In this document: piece by piece, positions 3,102 through 51,654 of the stretch
Layout: each line of letters begins with the position of its first letter
Position numbering within the stretch: position 1 is the first letter of the stretch
NCBI GenBank assembly: GCA_036479435.1
Contig: JAZGFI010000262.1
Location: 1-51,654, forward strand
Reading direction: 5' to 3'
From: Planctomycetota bacterium
GTDB lineage: Bacteria; Planctomycetota; GCA-002687715; DRQF01
DNA: 51,654 nucleotides
Translations under genes and position numbers: made by a program
The notes under the pieces: model-generated
The model's input: the letters and a program-made list of their open reading frames with translations, nothing else
What the model was told of the DNA's origin: nothing
Databases searched by the model: none

Positions 3102-5228
3102 TCAGCGGGCGCAGAGCCAGAGGAGCTGGGATAGTTCCATGCCGCAGTAGGTCTTTTCGTCGGCGCGGAGTTTTTCCATCGCCGCGGTGGCGATTTCAGA
3201 AGCTCGTTGTCTCCATTCTGAAGGGCCCCCAAGATCGGCGCCGCGCTCGAGTCCCCAGGCAAAAAAGAGCATCTGCTCGCCATGGCAGGCAGCTTTGGAT
3301 GCCATGACTCGGGTCTCGTCTAAGGGGACGATGAGGCTAGAGGCGAGGATCTTGTCTCGCGGTTTCCACGCACGCTCGAGAGCCTTTGACATGAACTCCA
3401 ACCAGCGGTTGAGCGCGGCGGGATTGCGGTCGGCCACGCCGACCCGATACAGGGCTTCCCCCAAGATGCCCGCGGCTACCCAAGTCGAGATGAGCCACGA
3501 TTTGGGCGGATCACTCGTGCGTTCAAAAACTGGATAGGGAGCGGCGGGCTGAGCGTTTAAGGTCTTCAAGAAGCGTGAGATTAATTCTCGATCCCGAGGC
3601 TCGTCGTCACGCGCCGTCAAAACGGCGAGATTGAGCAGTGACCAGGCGAAAGAACGAAGGTTAAGGGCCGCAGGGTCGCGCTTGCGCAAGATCAGCCGAA
3701 GAGCCTTGGCGAAGGCGGCCGCTCCTTTTGCCAACTCATCATCGCCGCTTTGGTCGGCAAGACCTTGAAGTCCTTCGAGCCAACAGTGCCCCAACTCGAC
3801 TTGCCCCCGATGATCATAGCCGTGCCGAAACGGAAGCCCGCGGTGCTCCCGATCCATGTCGATGCGAACGAGATGGCGAGCGGCGCGAAGAGCCCGCCGC
3901 ATCTCATTGGGATCGCGTTCTGCCTCAGCCCAGCGCGAAAGCCCACAGATCGTGTCGAATTCAAGGTTACCCGCGTGAGATCGACTCCAGGGCCAATCCC
4001 CAAAGCGCATCTCACCGGGCCAGTCAAAGGGATGCAAGACATCCACTTGGGTTCGAAGGCGGCCGCGCAAGTAGCCGCGAAGATCCTGGCGCCAGTCGGA
4101 GCCCCGGTGAATGGCCTTGCTTCGTTGAGGGCGCTTGATCTTGAGAGCCACCGCCTCGCGAAATGAGGCGGGCCGACCACGGGCCGACTTCCCCCATCGC
4201 AGCCGCAACACTCTGGTAGATCTTCTCCCCACCGACCAAGAAAACTGATCGCTGGTGCAGAGCATCTCGACGCTTCGGGAGGAGTTGAAGAGCCAGCGGC
4301 CGCAGTTACTGATGGCAAAATTTGCGGCGCTCAAGTCAAAACGTTGCGACGGACTTGGTCCTTGAAGGCGAAGGACCGCGGCGTCGAACGGCAAGACTTT
4401 GGACCCCGTTTGCAAGCGGCATCCGGAGACAAAGCTGCCGACAAACGCGCTGGGAACAGAAGGTTTGTACTTGATAACGCCTCGCCGAGACCCGCGCAGG
4501 GAACGAAGTGAAAAACCCAGACGGACATCGAGAGACATCTCGAAAGCGGCGAGTGGCGCTTGGACACACTCCAGCTGTTGTCGAATGATGAGCTCTTGGT
4601 GGCGAAAGTCGATCTCGTAACGCCGTGCAAGCAAAAACTCGCCCTGGTCTTTGGCGAACTCAATGGTGCCGCTTTGCTCCATCACCAATAGGTCGGACAG
4701 AGATTCCCTTTGAGTGATATCCGCAACACCTAGGCCTTTGCCGAGCGTCATGCTCGCAATCAGGAGCTTGGCACCGCCAGCCCTTAAGTTGATGAGCAGC
4801 TGCGCGGCATCAGCGGGGATTGTCAACGACAGTCCCTGCCCCGAAATGACCCGCCCGCCGTCTCGGGCCTGACGCATCCGCCACATCAGAGCCCGCTTTG
4901 CCGCAAGTGGTTTTTTGGTGGCTTGGCAAACCAAGCGAAAGGCCGATGAACGACCTTTCAATGGCAAGGCAACGGAGGCCCTGCGGAGAGAGCCGTCGTC
5001 CCAAAAAGCGCGTGGCCAAGGTTCAACGAGTCGCACGGAGCCCTGGTAACGGAAAGACAGCGCGGTCGATTTTGCCACTTGACCACGATCGAAGCTCAGG
5101 CCCAGCCACAGCCGGCGAGCCCCGGCGTGGTCTACTTGCCATTTGCCAAGGGACTGGGCTGTCGCCGAGGCCACCCAAGTGGAGCCGAAAAGCATCAGCG
5201 CAAGCAAGATTCGATTCGACACAGCCAT
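3102..5228 (-). CDS. Secreted Arg-rich protein, weakly PcRGLX/YetA-like (exo-rhamnogalacturonan lyase-like fold)
   Basis: ATG 5228 with GGGAG RBS and signal peptide; N-terminal 'WDDGSLRRA' and C-terminal 'NLEFD...RHLVRID...GHCWLEG' recall that family. Confidence 0.45.
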   Translation of the reverse strand: MAVSNRILLALMLFGSTWVASATAQSLGKWQVDHAGARRLWLGLSFDRGQVAKSTALSFRYQGSVRLVEPWPRAFWDDGSLRRASVALPLKGRSSAFRLVCQATKKPLAAKRALMWRMRQARDGGRVISGQGLSLTIPADAAQLLINLRAGGAKLLIASMTLGKGLGVADITQRESLSDLLVMEQSGTIEFAKDQGEFLLARRYEIDFRHQELIIRQQLECVQAPLAAFEMSLDVRLGFSLRSLRGSRRGVIKYKPSVPSAFVGSFVSGCRLQTGSKVLPFDAAVLRLQGPSPSQRFDLSAANFAISNCGRWLFNSSRSVEMLCTSDQFSWSVGRRSTRVLRLRWGKSARGRPASFREAVALKIKRPQRSKAIHRGSDWRQDLRGYLRGRLRTQVDVLHPFDWPGEMRFGDWPWSRSHAGNLEFDTICGLSRWAEAERDPNEMRRALRAARHLVRIDMDREHRGLPFRHGYDHRGQVELGHCWLEGLQGLADQSGDDELAKGAAAFAKALRLILRKRDPAALNLRSFAWSLLNLAVLTARDDEPRDRELISRFLKTLNAQPAAPYPVFERTSDPPKSWLISTWVAAGILGEALYRVGVADRNPAALNRWLEFMSKALERAWKPRDKILASSLIVPLDETRVMASKAACHGEQMLFFAWGLERGADLGGPSEWRQRASEIATAAMEKLRADEKTYCGMELSQLLWLCAR

Positions 5229-44433: not shown

Positions 44434-44506
<73 letters not shown>

Positions 44507-44510
44507 CTCC

Positions 44511-44644: not shown

Positions 44645-45415
44645 GTGAATTCTGAATCGTCGGCCAAGCGGCTCAAGCAACGCTGGGAAGCGCTCGCTAA
44701 GACCGAGCGCCGCGACTACTACATTGCCTCGCACCCCGGTTGGGATGACCCCAAGATTTGGGCCAGCCGCGCCAGCGCTGATGCGGGATTCGTTCTTCAG
44801 GGATTTAGCGACGATCGCCTACGCGAAGCGAAGGTGTTGGAGATTGGCTGCGGCGTAGGACGCCTAGTTCCGAGCATCGCGAAACGCGTTGGCCGTTACA
44901 CCGGAATCGACATTGCGACTTCTTGTATCGCCGAAGCGCGCAAACGTTGCCAAGAACTCGACAACACCCGCTTTGAAGAGTGCAACGGCGAGGAAATCCC
45001 CGAAGCTGTTCTCGACCAACAGTATGACATCATCTTCGCCGCCGCCGTCTTCATTCATTGCCCGCTCGATGTCATCGAAAAAATGATCGCCGCCGCTTGG
45101 AAGTCTCTCGCCCCGGGCGGCGAGTTTCGCTTTCAACTCCGGGGCGACTTAGCGGACAACAAGGGCATTCAGATTCCACTCGAGGTCTTAGAAGAGATGG
45201 AAAAAGAGGAGCTCAAAGAGGCCCACCGCGGCGTCGAGCAAGCCAAAACCGAAGGTGACGAGCAAGCGCTTGAAGAAGACTACATGGGATTCGCCTTTAG
45301 CTATGACGCCGCGCAAGAGATGGTCGACCGCATCCTCCCCCACGACGTACAACTGCTGCGCATGAGCCACGCCTTCATCTTTGGCTTTGTCAGCAAAAAA
45401 AGCCTGAGCAGCTGA
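44645..45415 (+). CDS. Class I SAM-dependent methyltransferase
   Basis: VLEIGCGVGR, GIDI, YDIIF, LAPGGEF. Confidence 0.9.
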   Translation: MNSESSAKRLKQRWEALAKTERRDYYIASHPGWDDPKIWASRASADAGFVLQGFSDDRLREAKVLEIGCGVGRLVPSIAKRVGRYTGIDIATSCIAEARKRCQELDNTRFEECNGEEIPEAVLDQQYDIIFAAAVFIHCPLDVIEKMIAAAWKSLAPGGEFRFQLRGDLADNKGIQIPLEVLEEMEKEELKEAHRGVEQAKTEGDEQALEEDYMGFAFSYDAAQEMVDRILPHDVQLLRMSHAFIFGFVSKKSLSS

Positions 45416-45607
45416 AGTACCCTGGGCTTTGCTTTGGCTGGGAGGAAAGGGTGGTGACTTTGGTCTGACCCAAACGATCAGGGTTTGCGCTGGGGCTGCT
45501 CAGGCGGACAGTTAGTCGTTATAGTCTCGATCCCCGGCGAATGACCTACGAGACTGAGGCCCTTATTTTGAGGGCCTCTTCGCGGCTCAATCCAAGGACT
45601 CTCAACC

Positions 45608-47595
45608 ATGCTGCTATTTCGACGGACCGTTTGGGCCTTAGTATTCCTCATCTCAATCGCTACTGCCCCCGCCCAGGGTCAAGAAGAAAACAAGGGCGGC
45701 GACCTCCTCAACCGGCGAACCGCCGGGATTGTTGCCGTTGAGGCCCGCGTAGAGGTGGACTTCGGTGAAATGGGCTCGATGATGGGCCTTGGTGACGATG
45801 GGCTCCAAATTGACATCCAGGGTTCCGGCATTGTCCTGCGTGCCGATGGGCTCGTGGTCGTTCCTACTCAAGTTATCGAGATGCAAGTACCAGCCCTCGG
45901 CCCCGGTGGTACCGCCGACGTCGAGCGAACGGGCCTTTGGATCGTGGCGGGAGACGGTGTGCGACACGACGCGAAAGTCGTGGGCGCATCCGAGACTCTG
46001 GGTCTCAGCTACTTAGCGGTGACGGGCAAGGCGACGAAATTCGACACCATTGAGTTCTCAGCCAACGAGAGCATGGCCCTCCCCGGCCAAGCGCTGTACG
46101 GCATCGGCAGACTGCCGAAGCTCTACGGATACGTTCCGCGACTATTGAAGGGCTACTGCAGCGCTGTCATCAAAAAGCCCGTCGCTGGCATTCTCCAAGA
46201 GGGAATCACGGAAACCGGTTTTGCCGTCTTCGACGCCGATGGGAAGTTCTTCGGCATCACGGCGAAGACGCCCACTCCTGACGAGAAAGATCGCGGCGGA
46301 ATAGCGAACGTGCTTCTTGGATCCACAAAGGGCGCGAGCCACATCCTCGTGGTGTCTGGCCAAACAATTCTTGCCGACTTGGCCAAATCCACCGATGGCC
46401 TCACCATCAAGGCTTCCGGGCAAGCGGTCGGCGAAAAACCTGACGAAGGCGCGAAGTCAAAAGCCGAATTCATCGAGTACGCAAAAAGCCGCCTCGGCGC
46501 TGACGACGATTTTCTCGCCAAGTTGTTCAAAGCCGTCGACGTCGACGGTGACGGCTGGGTCTCCACCGAAGAGTTCGAGGGGCGCATGGATGCCATCCAG
46601 AAGCTTCGGCGCCAAGGCGGCGCCAAGGCGGCGACGGCGGCGGCGGCGATGACGGCGAAACACGCCGTCGCCGTCGCGAGCCGACCCCTCCGCGCGACAT
46701 GTCCGACCCTGAGGCCGACTACGACAAGCACGCGCGTCGAGCCGTCGAACGCGATTCGTTTCCGGTTTTCGACAATCCTGAAATGACGGCAGCCAAGGAC
46801 TCGACCCTTGATGATGACGAAGCAATCATCGGCGTCGTTGTGGAAGGCGAAGCCCGCGCCTACCCGGTCGCTGTCATGGGTCACATCGAGCTTGGCAACG
46901 ACACCTGCGGCCAAACCCCCTTCGCGGTCTCGTGGTGACCGCTTTGCCAGACGGCTATCGTGTATAGCCGACGCATCGAAGACCGCGTGCTCAAACTGGG
47001 TCACGAAGGCATGCTTTACCGCAACTCGTTCATCATGTATGACCATCAGACGAATTCGCATTGGGTCCACACCACCGGCGAGTGCGTTAAGGGCAAACTA
47101 AAAGGAAAACAGCTTCGCTTTATCCCCAGCTCAGTGATGACCTGGGGTGCCTGGCGCAAACTCAATCCGATGTCTCTCGTCCTCGAAGGCGAGATGACCA
47201 GAGGTTTCATGGGGACCTTTAGGCTCAACGCCAAAAGCCCCAATCGCTACGGAATCTCTATCGGGCAGGGCGCCACCGCCAAGTTGTTCTCCATCAAGTC
47301 CTTGCTCGTTAACCCCGTCGTTCAAGATCGACTCGGCGATGACGACGTCGTCATCTTTTTCGACAAAGAAAGCCTGCATGCCACCGCCTGGATTCGCGGC
47401 AAGAACGAGTTTCGTCAGGTCGACGGCAAAATCCTCGATCAACGCGGGCGCGAATGGAACGCCATGCTCGGTCAGCCCATCGGTGCTGACAACGCCAGCG
47501 AAAAGATGAGGCCCATTGCGGCGACGGTTTGGCTCATCGAGCGTTGGAGAGGCTTTTACCCCAAAGCATCTTCGCCTTCGCCCAAGGACAAGTGA
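45608..47595 (+). CDS. Predicted secreted selenoprotein: degenerate trypsin-like domain + EF-hand + DUF3179-like domain (UxxC), interrupted by an 11-bp duplication frameshift
   Basis: Signal peptide; EF loop DVDGDGWVSTEE; deleting one CGGCGCCAAGG copy (46607-46628) joins 45608 to the 46699 frame; TGA 46936-46938 reads W-U-P-L-C and the frame continues to TGA 47593-47595 (658 aa, Sec440 if fused; 298 aa, Sec80 from ATG 46699). Confidence 0.8.
46607..46633 (+). repeat. 11-bp tandem duplication CGGCGCCAAGG x2 plus partial third copy
   Basis: Direct reading; lies exactly at the frame switch. Confidence 0.9.
46945..46975 (+). promoter_or_regulatory. Candidate bacterial SECIS element
   Basis: CGGCTAT-CGTGT-ATAGCCG (46952-46970); 20 nt between the TGA and the loop; lower TGC/GCA pairing. 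Confidence 0.8.
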
Positions 47596-47616
47596 GAGCA
47601 AGCTTGGCATCGGCAA

Positions 47617-47659
47617 CATGAGAAGAGCCCCCAGGGATAGCCTGGGGGCTCTTCTCATG
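47617..47659. repeat. Perfect 19-bp inverted repeat (terminator or stabilising hairpin)
   Basis: CATGAGAAGAGCCCCCAGG-gatag-CCTGGGGGCTCTTCTCATG; no long T tract. Confidence 0.8.
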
Positions 47660-47750
47660 CGAACCCGATGAGCCCTGGCGCAGAACTTGACTCTCGGGGT
47701 GTTAGAATCGGGCTCGAATGATCGCCCATCTCTAGCCTTCGGAGAGCATC

Positions 47751-49385
47751 GTGCCGAAACACACGCTCCGCCTCATCTTCTGCTTTGGTGGCCTGATTTG
47801 CCTGCAAGCCTTCGCCAGTGCACAAGGGCTGCCAGACGGCCCCCTATGGGGCAGAGGTCGCGAGCCAGACGGTGCCAACTCGGTTTTTGCGACCTCCGAC
47901 GGCTGCGCGCTTTGTCACAGTGCGACAGATCGCGCCACTGCCATGCGGGACAAAGCGGGCAACGACATTTCGCCCTACCATCTGTGGCAAACGTCGATGA
48001 TGGCCAACGCCTTTAGGGATCCCTATTGGCGAGCCCAGGTCTCCAAAGCCACCCTGGCGCATCCGAAACAGGCGGCGGATATCGAAAAACTTTGCACCAC
48101 CTGCCACGCCCCCATGATGAGCCACACCGCGCGCATCGCCGGATTTGCCTCCTTCTCTATCCACGAGATCGAAGGCATGGCGCTCGCCGAAGATGGCGTT
48201 TCTTGCATGGTTTGCCACATGGCGCAGCCCGACAATTTGGGAAAAGTCGAGAGCTTCAACGGCAAGCTCGACATCCGCCCGGGACGCACGATCTTCGGAC
48301 CTTACCCCGAGCCCTTTGCCATGCCGATGAGGATATTCGCTGCGGCTAGGGTGACTCAGGGCAAGCACATTCAATCCTCGGCGATGTGCGGCAGTTGCCA
48401 CACCTTGGAAACTCACCATGCGGTCGGCGCCGAAGGATTCCAAGAACAGACGCCCTACTTAGAATGGCTCAACAGTGATTTTGCCGACGGCGCCAAAGAC
48501 GCGAAGTCTTGCCAAGAGTGCCACATGACTAACTACGGCACGACGCGCATTGCCCGCGCGCCTCACCGCGGGGATTTCAACATCCCCCCCCGCCCCAACT
48601 ACCGCGGCCACAACTTTTATGGCGGCAACGCCTACATGCTCGACATCTTCGCCGCCAACCGCGAGACCTTGGATGTGAAGGCCTCGTCCGCTGCCCTGAA
48701 CGCCGCCGCCCAAGCGACGCGCGACCAGTTGGCTAGCTCCACCGCCCAGGTCACGTTGTTGAACACCCGGGTAGAAAAGGGACGTCTGAAGTTCGACGTT
48801 CAGATCGAAAACAAGACTGGGCACAAGCTGCCAAGTGGTTACCCCTCAAGGCGCATCTGGCTCTCACTTGAAATCCGCGACGGCAATAAGCGCTTCTTCA
48901 TGTCCGGCGCCTATGACGATCGAGGCCGCCTAGTTGGCGTCAAAGATCCTCTGGCATTAGCGCATGTCGACACCGTCACGAAAGCCGAACAGATTCCGGT
49001 CTGGGAAACCGTCGTGCTGGACGCCAAGGGCAAGACCACCACAGAGTTGGTAGCCATGGCCCGCTACGGCAAGGACAACCGTCTATTGCCCCGAGGCTGG
49101 AAGAAAGACGGCGCCTTCGCCAAACGCACCACGCCGGTAGGAATCGGTACGGACAAGGACTTCCGTGACGGTAGCGATACCGTTCACTACGACCTTGATC
49201 TGAAAAAACACTCCGGCAAGGGGCTCGTCATCACGGCCAAGCTGCATTACCAGACGATCCCACCCGCTTGGGCCCTGGACTTGGTAGACGTTCCGACTAA
49301 AGAGGCCAAGATCTTCAACGACATCTACAAAAAGATGCCCACGAAGACCGAGATCTTGTCGTCGGACACGAAAACGTTGAAATGA
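47751..49385 (+). CDS. Secreted multiheme cytochrome c (5 CxxCH)
   Basis: Signal peptide; CALCH, CTTCH, CMVCH, CGSCH, CQECH; heme-free C-terminal domain with GHKLPSG. Confidence 0.92.
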   Translation: MPKHTLRLIFCFGGLICLQAFASAQGLPDGPLWGRGREPDGANSVFATSDGCALCHSATDRATAMRDKAGNDISPYHLWQTSMMANAFRDPYWRAQVSKATLAHPKQAADIEKLCTTCHAPMMSHTARIAGFASFSIHEIEGMALAEDGVSCMVCHMAQPDNLGKVESFNGKLDIRPGRTIFGPYPEPFAMPMRIFAAARVTQGKHIQSSAMCGSCHTLETHHAVGAEGFQEQTPYLEWLNSDFADGAKDAKSCQECHMTNYGTTRIARAPHRGDFNIPPRPNYRGHNFYGGNAYMLDIFAANRETLDVKASSAALNAAAQATRDQLASSTAQVTLLNTRVEKGRLKFDVQIENKTGHKLPSGYPSRRIWLSLEIRDGNKRFFMSGAYDDRGRLVGVKDPLALAHVDTVTKAEQIPVWETVVLDAKGKTTTELVAMARYGKDNRLLPRGWKKDGAFAKRTTPVGIGTDKDFRDGSDTVHYDLDLKKHSGKGLVITAKLHYQTIPPAWALDLVDVPTKEAKIFNDIYKKMPTKTEILSSDTKTLK

Positions 49386-49429
49386 CAAAGTGTCGCCAGG
49401 GCTGAATGCGCTGGCAACCTGCGACACCC

Positions 49430-49457
49430 AAAAGCCCGGCCAAAAGGCCGGGCTTTT
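49430..49457. terminator. Bidirectional intrinsic terminator
   Basis: AAAAGCCCGGCC-aaaa-GGCCGGGCTTTT between convergent genes. Confidence 0.85.
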
Positions 49458-50631
49458 ACTTTAGGTAGGCGCGAAGGTCCCGCGCGGCCTGTGGCGGCAC
49501 GAAGTAGGCGGCGCTGTTTTTGTCCGACAGTTTGGTCGCGAAGCCGATGCTGAACTTGCCCTCGGGCGGGTTCGGCGTGTAGGAACCGCATCCGAAAAAA
49601 TCGCCCTTTGAGACCAAGTCGAATTGCGTGAGCTGGCCCTTCTTCATCCGATAGAAACCAAGGACTTGGCCTTCGTAGCCACGGTCGCCGTTTTTGGATT
49701 CCAGCTTCACCTGCCCCACAATCTTCCAGCCCTTTGGCTGCTTCAAGACTTTGAGCTTTAGTTCTTTCACTTCCTCGACTCGCCACATCGGAGGCTCGCC
49801 TCTGGTGTTGTCAACGAAGTGAAACCTGACGATCCTGCGCTTCAAGCTCTCCGCCAATTTGCCCTTTCTGAGCAACTTGCGCTCCGACTCTAAGATCCAC
49901 AGTCGGTCTTTGCCTCGCGCCGCACGAATCATCTCACTCCAAGTGTTCTTGTTCTTCGGCCACGAGCCCTTCAAGATTCTCGAATGAACGTCAACCACGG
50001 TGGCACCAGCCGGGATATCGCGCTGGTAGCGAGGGTCACTCTTGGACTGGCTTGGGCCTTTGGGCGCGCGCGTCTTCTGGGTAGAGATTGCCTTCAAGCC
50101 ATTTTTGAGGTGCCGCCTGACGCGGCCAGGGTTGCGGTTGTTCCAACCCTGAAAGAGCTCCCCTGAAACCTCGAAAATGTAAAAACCCTGAGTGGTCCGG
50201 CCGAGATGCGCGCCCTCTCGTTGCAAGACGACTTTTCGATAAAAATCCCCCGCAGCATCTTGGCGGCGCGAGTAGTACCAAGCATCGACGGCTACCGGAA
50301 TGTAGCTGCGGCTTAAGAGCGCAACGATCTTTTTGTCAGCGAAGGTGGACGCACGGTCCACCACTCCGTTGTTTCAGACACAGCCCATCGGATGGCCATC
50401 CATGGACCACATGAACAAAGGCCGGCCCTTCTGCGACGATTTCTTAAGGGCCGCCGAAAGGTCGATCTCCCAAGGGATCGTCTCCCACGTGGCAGGTTTT
50501 CGCTGCGTAAGATCTTTGTGAAGGCGTTTGAACTCGGCTTGGCGAAGTGTCTCTTGCCCCCAAACACCTGCTCCGAGTATTCCCAACGCCAAAGCCGTTA
50601 GGCAATGCAACCGATTCAATCGGCTTCTCAA
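49456..50631 (-). CDS. Predicted secreted thioredoxin-like selenoprotein (CxU motif), 391 aa, Sec86
   Basis: ORFs 50374-50631 and 49456-50364 are in frame across TGA 50376-50374: DGHPMGCV-U-NNGVVDRASTFAD; the flanks 'IPWEIDLSAALKKSSQKGRPLF' and 'TFADKKIVALLSRSYIPVAVD' are two halves of one thioredoxin-like domain. Confidence 0.8.
50341..50366 (-). promoter_or_regulatory. Candidate bacterial SECIS element
   Basis: Minus strand GGTGGAC-CGTGC-GTCCACC (50362-50344), stem starting at +12 after TGA; extendable GAG/TTC pairing with a bulged T. Confidence 0.8.
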
Positions 50632-50722: not shown

Positions 50723-51259
50723 TCATGCATCCGCCTTATACTCTTTCAGATCCGACATGAATTCCCTCAATTTGAGAAGAGCATCCGTGTTGTCAGGATC
50801 TGCAGCCCACATCTTGACTTCGTCCCAATAGTCTTTGTCTCTCCCATTCTCCTCTTTTTGAATTCGGTGTTCGCAGATACTTGTCACAAGGCGGAGCAAG
50901 GAGTCATACGAGGTTGCGAAGCCTTGTTGCTCACGGCGAAGCGCGATGAACTCCGCCCATCGAACCACCATATTGGTAATAGATGAGCCTTCCATGACAG
51001 CAATCATCTCGATGTCGTAGAGGCCATGATCGACTCCAATGCCGATACTGAGGAGTCTAGACAAGAAATTGCGGACGCGTAGTCGTTGCCTCGCGTGTTT
51101 CGAAAGTTCCTCGACTGGACCTCTCGCATAGATCGGAGGCAAGAACTGCATGTTCGGCACACCGTCGGACTGGAAGAACTCGACGGCCTCGGACCTAGCG
51201 GCACAACACTGTTCGCCAACATTATCAAGGGTGTATTTCTTCAGCTCAAGACTCGACAT
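50723..51259 (-). CDS. Hypothetical protein, DUF4760-like
   Basis: GAGGA RBS before ATG 51259; 'IGIGVDHGLYDIEMI...W..FI..RR...SYDSL' pattern; visibly more AT-rich than neighbours. Confidence 0.5.
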   Translation of the reverse strand: MSSLELKKYTLDNVGEQCCAARSEAVEFFQSDGVPNMQFLPPIYARGPVEELSKHARQRLRVRNFLSRLLSIGIGVDHGLYDIEMIAVMEGSSITNMVVRWAEFIALRREQQGFATSYDSLLRLVTSICEHRIQKEENGRDKDYWDEVKMWAADPDNTDALLKLREFMSDLKEYKADA

Positions 51260-51654
51260 GTTTTCCTCGCTGCTCATTCAACCTGAATACCCAAGGCGCA
51301 CTACTCTCGGGTGGCCAGGTTGCGATCATTCGAATTTCCCAAAAGCGGCCCACGCCAACGTCCTCGACATTAAACAGGTGTGAAGCGGTCGTCAATGCTC
51401 AAAACAGGACTCTAGCCTCAAAGCGTCTGCTGCAACGTCGGATTGATGGGAACTCGAGACGACTCCGGGCCGCAACGAGTTCACTCATTGACCGTAGCCT
51501 TCAGCTCAACGTTTGTTGGCGCAACCAAAAAGTGGCCGATGGAACCTGCCGTAGATCTATCCGCACCATGCAGTCACAGCTCCCGATCTTCTTTCGAAAT
51601 GCAATCCCAGGTAATTCCCAAGCGGCGGATAGGCCGAAAGTAGACGGGCAGCTC

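Follow-up and report, generated by a model that had tools for sequence, protein, structure and literature searches.

Do the three adjacent genes at 45608-50631 of contig JAZGFI010000262.1, from the genome of a Planctomycetota bacterium (assembly GCA_036479435.1), form a system in which selenium and heme work together outside the cytoplasm? The original prediction for this contig (51,654 nucleotides, here called the window) was that two genes with an in-frame TGA, here gene 1 and gene 3, flank the gene of a pentaheme cytochrome and constitute a thiol-redox system based on selenocysteine (Sec), which matures the cytochrome or exchanges electrons with it. Our analysis leads to a different answer. 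We read the locus as three separate genes for predicted exported proteins, of which two very likely encode selenoproteins and the third a cytochrome without Sec; they are likely neighbours by rearrangement, with probably no dedicated system behind them. All three N-termini are signal-peptide-like, as had been stated. Scored as the best 12-residue Kyte-Doolittle mean and not by a signal-peptide predictor, those of gene 1, cytochrome and gene 3 reach 2.42, 2.23 and 2.17. The source genome (G000, in which the window is contig C262) comprises 5.47 Mb with 58% GC and is 92% complete, and both the cytochrome and gene 3 have their best named relatives in Planctomycetota.

The arrangement of the genes does not point to a common unit. 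Gene 3 is convergent to the cytochrome gene, and strong hairpins part all three genes. The gap between gene 1 and the cytochrome gene contains a 19-bp hairpin without U tract (47617-47659; z -9.5, reached by 0 of 200 shuffles), and the convergent gap between the cytochrome gene and gene 3 a bidirectional terminator-like hairpin of 12 bp with A and U runs on both sides (49430-49457; z -5.0). Both hairpins had been noticed before, together with the caveat that the adjacency may be incidental, and this caveat is supported by the comparison with other genomes. Cytochrome orthologues occur in all eight members of the taxonomic family, but a homologue of gene 1 or gene 3 was found in none of 12 flanks of cytochrome orthologues (seven flanks of at least 12 kb, five below 10 kb). 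When the 22 further genomes from the order are compared, the cytochrome has close orthologues in 11 and gene 3 in four, and no genome has both. The orthologues of the cytochrome and of gene 1 lie on different contigs in G002, G006 and G008, as do those of genes 1 and 3 in G021. Profile searches for the partner genes, which recovered 13 of 13 held-out controls, gave no hit in 80 cytochrome loci (1.18 Mb; 69 loci of at least 10 kb) and none in 80 gene-3 loci (0.49 Mb; 17 loci of at least 10 kb). Likewise, 30 short DUF3179 loci from a sample of 151 genomes of the phylum, with flanks of about 1.5 kb, hold neither a partner nor a multiheme gene. The original prediction had itself named missing linkage among the three genes as evidence against it, and no conserved linkage was seen in any comparison made. 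Two minor observations belong here: one of the 30 DUF3179 loci has a TlpA-like hit, and in G017 a distant relative of the cytochrome lies near a distant, thioredoxin-like gene 3 hit without TGA.

Sec can be expected in the outer genes only if the genome is able to insert it. The machinery, whose presence the original prediction had proposed to check, was found: selA (526 bits), selB (323), selD (372) and tRNA-Sec (67) each score above their own cut-off. On contig C117 selA, selD and tRNA-Sec are found together, selB is located on C237, and selD has an in-frame TGA of its own. The selA gene is present in all 23 genomes of the order. As had been described, the TGA of both outer genes lies in a redox motif and has a matching hairpin, which follows it with a 7-bp stem and a CGUGY loop. 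What did not hold is the reading frame of gene 1: its TGA and the signal peptide that starts with the ATG at 45608 are in different frames.

The evidence for Sec is strongest in gene 3 (49456-50631, minus strand). Its TGA (50374-50376, minus strand) is part of the motif GHPMGCV-U-NNG, the hairpin resembling a Sec insertion sequence (SECIS) at 50344-50362 (minus strand) has the loop CGUGC, and read-through yields a protein of 391 amino acids with a hydrophobic N-terminus. In 11 related genomes, all 15 homologues that were read have TGA at this site, a count that leaves out three weak hits without the motif and one unread hit. In 80 metagenome loci we found 77 TGA and three Cys codons; since Cys was the residue preferred by one of the two search patterns, the query does not account for this excess. 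Counted from the T of TGA, positions 18 and 30, both third codon positions, pair in all 49 distinct sequences (34 C-G, 15 G-C, no mismatch), and the pattern by which these sequences were selected fixed the inner stem but not the two covarying positions. In gene 1, the hairpin at 46952-46970 (plus strand, loop CGUGU) is conserved more weakly: 94% of the cells are paired with one compensatory change in five sequences, and 108 of 500 shuffles scored as high. The folding energies are no better than those of shuffled sequences (z 0.17 for gene 1, whose hairpin was cut one base late in this test, and -1.06 for gene 3), so that the support for both hairpins comes from conservation and covariation and not from energy. 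We infer from these observations that the conserved in-frame UGA of genes 1 and 3 almost certainly encodes selenocysteine.

What kind of protein is encoded by gene 3? No Pfam or NCBIfam family scores above its cut-off, NCBIfam gives no hit at E 0.1, and the only Pfam match is PF03190 with E 0.081; the Pfam and NCBIfam models of catalogued CxU selenoprotein families (e.g. thioredoxin-like Sec.1, PF13192) do not match either. The family is large, lacks a public model and is truncated at the UGA in databases, where 117 of the 120 best hits cover only the part behind the UGA (75-83% of the query). The full-length record P0016 shows Trp at the Sec site and was probably translated with a code in which TGA is Trp. 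A structural model was built from 106 alignment rows and reached a predicted local distance difference test score (pLDDT) of 94.9, compared to only 33.5 for a model from the single sequence. Residues 22-161 of the model match PDB 3f9u (Z 13.9, root-mean-square deviation 2.0, 112 aligned residues), and the C-x-U motif at residues 59-61 falls within the matched range. Hence the model predicts an N-terminal thioredoxin fold that bears the Cys/Sec motif, followed by a beta-rich C-terminal domain. The fold is shared with the group of Thioredoxin_7, DsbD-gamma, DsbH and AGR-ERp18 (PDB 3f9u, 3ira, 7tkv, 2ju5; Z 10.9-13.9). Gene 3 differs from this group by C-x-U instead of C-x-x-C, by an identity of 17% at most and by the additional beta-rich domain of 200 residues. 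Sequence searches of the PDB with gene 3 and with DUF3179 returned nothing usable.

Gene 1 turned out to be less simple than one gene running from signal peptide to Sec, as which it had been presented. Its 5' part (45608-46620, plus strand) comprises the signal-peptide-like N-terminus, an HtrA/DegP-like fold and a pair of EF-hands, its 3' part (46635-47595, plus strand) a charged linker and a DUF3179 domain with U-x-x-C. In between, a GGC-rich repeat carries an insertion of 14 bases (46621-46634, plus strand; a duplication of 11 bases plus three), which had been overlooked. In the allele of the window, the frame from 45608 runs out of register to a stop at 46786, and DUF3179 lies in a different frame. 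The six run contigs that cover the site differ: the 14 bases are present in X1, X2, X3 and X7 and absent in X4 and X5, where gene 1 is a single frame. The window possibly derives from X1 and X2, and one sample label is shared by X3, X4 and X5; X8 and X9 are mere scraps and uninformative on synteny. An assembly error was considered as the cause and rejected, as each allele is carried by independent runs. The frameshift is a real allele, polymorphic among runs. The insertion in the repeat could reflect on/off variation driven by slippage. Due to the frameshift, the Sec-bearing half is without signal peptide in this assembly (N-terminal hydropathy 0.07). In G021, G006 and G002 the orthologue is one uninterrupted frame, with 678, 614 and 670 codons, respectively; that of G008 is shorter and without the N-terminal domain.

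With the TGA (46936-46938, plus strand; SW-U-PLC) read through, the DUF3179 domain (PF11376) of gene 1 reaches 178 bits against a cut-off of 27. The Sec site was read in 14 other homologues, giving 12 TGA, one Cys and one neither, and both Sec and Cys forms of DUF3179 occur in the phylum. DUF3179 is listed as a selenoprotein family with a UxxC/T motif in the passages available of two papers (PMC13188914, Table 1; PMC9312934), and gene 1 shares with it U-x-x-C at the listed motif and a score far above the cut-off. It departs from these selenoproteins in architecture, since two orthologues have an inactive HtrA-like domain and EF-hands fused in front of DUF3179, and one has the HtrA-like domain alone there. 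In the passages at hand of PMC13188914, PMC9312934 and PMC9230427 no function of DUF3179 is given, and no solved structure was found. For the 5' part, Pfam reports Trypsin_2 (E 8.4e-5) and EF-hand hits, all below cut-off; a match to XopAW (18.5 bits against 120) was dismissed, as it covers only the EF-hand. A profile of five homologous N-terminal domains matches structures of HtrA and PepD with E 1.8e-7. The columns which we take to be the catalytic His and Asp of PepD and HtrA1 align to other residues in gene 1, and the presumed Ser column lies outside the alignments. Judged by these alignments, the N-terminal domain is an apparent HtrA-like fold lacking the catalytic His and Asp. This inactive HtrA-like domain recurs on contig C290 of the source genome (30-1910, minus strand), where it is joined to a TlpA-like domain with U-x-x-C.

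The middle gene (47751-49385, plus strand) encodes the predicted exported pentaheme c-type cytochrome, without Sec, which probably belongs to the pentaheme/Ig-like (PHC) superfamily. The five CxxCH motifs reported for it were located at residues 52, 115, 152, 213 and 254. By sequence comparison it appears as an ordinary member of a wide family (554 clusters at E 1e-30, with five motifs in 143 of the best 150) that is distantly related to ExtKL/MccSep, the polysulfide reductase of Geobacter sulfurreducens. With this enzyme (NF040886; passages of PMC13510729) it shares (predicted) export, five CxxCH motifs and the C-terminal motif GH-x-x-P-x-G-x-P in a part there described as Ig-like. According to the same passages, MccSep requires Sec325 and the heme-ligating Cys239, and the Sec peptide given there can be aligned by eye with GHKLPSG-Y-PSRR of our cytochrome. 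The window protein thus has Tyr in place of Sec325, as do 10 of 12 orthologues (two unparsed); in the 150 best representatives the position is Tyr in 78, Phe in 32, Ile in 17, His in 12, unparsed in 11 and Cys in none. A count of 80/80 Tyr from the genome loci was discarded since the search pattern itself contained Tyr. The mature protein, like 10 of 12 orthologues, has no Cys outside CxxCH and therefore no spare heme ligand of this kind, and its score against NF040886 is 43.3 bits at a cut-off of 250. On these three grounds an identification as MccSep was ruled out. By profile, the cytochrome also resembles cytochrome c552 of Thermochromatium tepidum (PDB 5ze8, E 8.8e-5) in the pentaheme and C-terminal beta-sandwich parts, although the similarity is distant.

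The passages available of PMC11976967 and 10.1101/2023.11.21.568154 describe a pentaheme/Ig-like group that includes MccSep, sPHC and lPHC of cable bacteria, Gsu2801 and PtdA, and give the function of the PHC group as unknown. In 34 of 80 loci, from many phyla, the gene upstream of our cytochrome family encodes a MetA-type porin to which a monoheme cytochrome c is fused. Relatives sitting behind a porin gene in this way recall the PtdA-PtdB pair (10.1101/2023.11.21.568154, as far as its passages describe it), but in our family the porin is upstream and fused to the monoheme cytochrome, and the full gene of this kind gave no hit in the source genome. The porin fusion and the cytochrome (loci L084-L163, e.g. 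L134:1458-2699) are likely a porin-cytochrome pair. In five of 12 related genomes, from two related genera (L028-L032), a divergent cbb3-type oxidase cluster adjoins the cytochrome gene.

If the locus itself is not a heme maturation system, where in this genome is the thiol reductant to be sought? Reductant for heme attachment is supplied by maturation thioredoxins of the CcmG/ResA type, which are fed by DsbD/CcdA. Genes 1 and 3 do not belong to the CcmG/ResA/TlpA class: they have no Redoxin or AhpC-TSA match, and no PF01578 or DsbD gene is nearby. Eight other Sec genes of the genome, TlpA-like and with U-x-x-C, fit these models. The PF01578 genes are located on contigs C154 and C158. The sole DsbD that was found (C271:81187-84207, minus strand) has T-U-P-N-C in its gamma domain and a hairpin loop CGUGU as in gene 1. 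Across the order, 20 of 23 genomes have a TGA in their DsbD match, and the site could be read in 20 of 22 relatives, showing U-x-x-C in 19 and C-x-x-C in one. An extracytoplasmic thiol system based on Sec does seem to exist at the level of the genome, encoded elsewhere. Therefore the idea behind the original prediction may hold for the genome, whereas it fails for the locus, for want of linkage and of any likeness to CcmG, ResA or TlpA and because gene 1 is frameshifted. As DsbD of this order is mostly of the Sec type, selenium may be needed to supply the envelope with reductant, probably also for cytochrome c maturation. A literature search for papers combining selenocysteine, DsbD, cytochrome c maturation and the periplasm returned none.

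The roles that we infer for the products would then be separate. SelB-dependent read-through at the hairpin would yield the gene 3 protein, which likely acts through its C-x-U site as an exported oxidoreductase or isomerase of thiols and disulfides. The intact allele of gene 1 would give a secreted protein, the inactive HtrA-like domain of which likely holds envelope proteins while the U-x-x-C site of DUF3179 likely repairs their thiols. Such a combination of a substrate-holding and a thiol-repair module would point to the repair of envelope proteins more than to heme attachment. In the strain of the window, the frameshifted allele likely yields no exported selenoprotein. By analogy to what has been proposed for the porin-linked relatives, the cytochrome likely carries or stores periplasmic electrons. 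For its maturation it would depend on the cell's general machinery of cytochrome c assembly, and the reductant would likely be passed on by the Sec-type DsbD and the TlpA-like proteins that are encoded elsewhere.

How often such a neighbourhood arises by chance can be estimated roughly from 17-40 Sec genes, 12 multiheme genes and about 3,500 roughly called genes in the source genome. Two Sec genes with any gene between them are expected 0.08-0.46 times per genome. Several observations weigh against neighbours by rearrangement. The triplet of Sec, multiheme and Sec gene is expected only 0.0003-0.0016 times per genome by the same rough count, and two of the 12 multiheme genes have a Sec neighbour where 0.12-0.27 would be expected. 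The second case is a pentaheme relative on contig C69 with a Sec gene directly upstream, a pair that is kept in one of seven family relatives. In structural comparison, gene 3 comes closest to a DsbD-gamma-like domain that bears the title 'cytochrome C biogenesis-related'. The source genome has no hit for the cbb3 cluster and, for the porin gene, only a short hit to the cytochrome domain. Finally, the comparison set is without a congeneric genome, many relatives are fragmented, and only the 17 of 80 gene-3 loci named above reach 10 kb. As the triplet is so rare, chance has to be helped by the size of the scan or by a clustering of genes for exported proteins; the pattern was picked in hindsight from a scan of very large size. 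We regard the adjacency of redox genes in a selenium-rich genome as weak evidence for joint function. The same holds for the C69 pair as a sign of a partnership of selenium and heme: it is present in G003 and missing in the six other relatives checked. At this site (C69:1165-4740, minus strand), the gene of a membrane-anchored pentaheme-TPR protein, a distant relative of the window cytochrome, is directly preceded on the same strand by a peroxiredoxin-like U-x-x-C gene.

A dedicated and recently assembled module, in which the flanking selenoproteins reduce the CxxCH motifs for heme attachment or exchange electrons with the cytochrome, would explain why three predicted exported proteins stand side by side, why gene 3 has a DsbD-gamma-like fold and why a triplet so improbable by chance in one genome is found. 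We nevertheless consider it unlikely: the linkage is absent in every comparison, 11 relatives have the cytochrome while no close orthologue of gene 3 was found in them, gene 1 is frameshifted in four of the six runs covering the site, and candidates for DsbD and TlpA-like proteins are located elsewhere. A different partnership would have selenium act in trans, with an MccSep-like pentaheme scaffold that lacks Sec and the heme-ligating Cys borrowing the selenol of a separate exported selenoprotein for the reduction of polysulfide or disulfide at the heme. The alignment by eye of the MccSep Sec peptide (in the passages of PMC13510729) with GHKLPSG-Y-PSRR, the weak NF040886 match and the second Sec gene beside a pentaheme relative on C69, kept in G003, are in line with this. 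Since 139 of 150 representatives have Tyr, Phe, Ile or His at the site and none has Cys, no partner of the flanking families occurs in 80 cytochrome loci and the C69 pairing is missing in six of seven relatives, we hold this to be very improbable.

Three genes that do not interact might still be held together by shared regulation, e.g. in an envelope or oxidative stress response, as all three encode predicted envelope redox proteins. The convergent gene 3 requires a promoter of its own, conserved clustering is absent from the 80 cytochrome and 80 gene-3 loci, the repeat upstream of gene 1 is, unlike a promoter, mostly found 3' of genes genome-wide, and a sigma-70 scan stayed at chance level, which makes such a regulation highly doubtful. 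It might also be asked whether the TGA codons are true stops in split or decaying genes, to which the frameshift in gene 1 and the unremarkable folding energy of the hairpins would fit. With TGA at Cys-equivalent sites in 77 of 80 (gene 3) and 12 of 14 (DUF3179) homologues, open frames beyond the TGA, covarying hairpins and the Sec machinery present, true stops are extremely unlikely. We therefore retain the reading as three separate genes, two of them for probable selenoproteins.

In the genome as a whole, at least 17 selenoprotein genes have domain support (13 by motif and Pfam, plus selD, two DUF3179 genes and gene 3). Scans by hairpin alone proved too noisy for such counts, so motif and Pfam were used instead. 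Of 18 TGA candidates tested by Pfam, 13 have a redox or heavy-metal-associated (HMA) domain at the TGA, three have no family and one is an FG-GAP protein. An acid phosphatase gene (C117:46853-47719, minus strand) was dropped, since its internal TGA is likely a nonsense change and not Sec. Domains of the HMA type in which TGA takes the place of the first motif Cys were seen at C146:3357, C109:1396, C96:7092 and C124:11313, the first two of them being confirmed by Pfam. TGA candidates beside a Cys are found at C220:1002, C295:7575, C97:31014 and C294:2479; one is the FG-GAP repeat protein and two are without Pfam family. A thioredoxin-like gene with VPG-U-KTC (C274:4000-5113, minus strand) has a second in-frame TGA at 4501, within a stretch that by eye resembles MsrA, and is likely a double selenoprotein.

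The surroundings of the locus in the window are formed by a tRNA-Ala (44434-44507), a gene for a methyltransferase dependent on S-adenosylmethionine (SAM; 44645-45415) and a DUF4760 gene (50723-51277), none of which was seen beside the orthologues examined. A scan for sigma-70 promoters and terminators gave results at chance level and missed both strong hairpins. In the Rfam scan only tRNA exceeded the gathering score, and the intergenic repeat of about 45 bases at 45440-45490, upstream of gene 1, remained unmatched. The repeat was considered as a promoter and rejected for its position mostly 3' of genes. Of its 43 hits in the genome, 32 have the same orientation as the upstream gene, and 22 lie between convergent genes.

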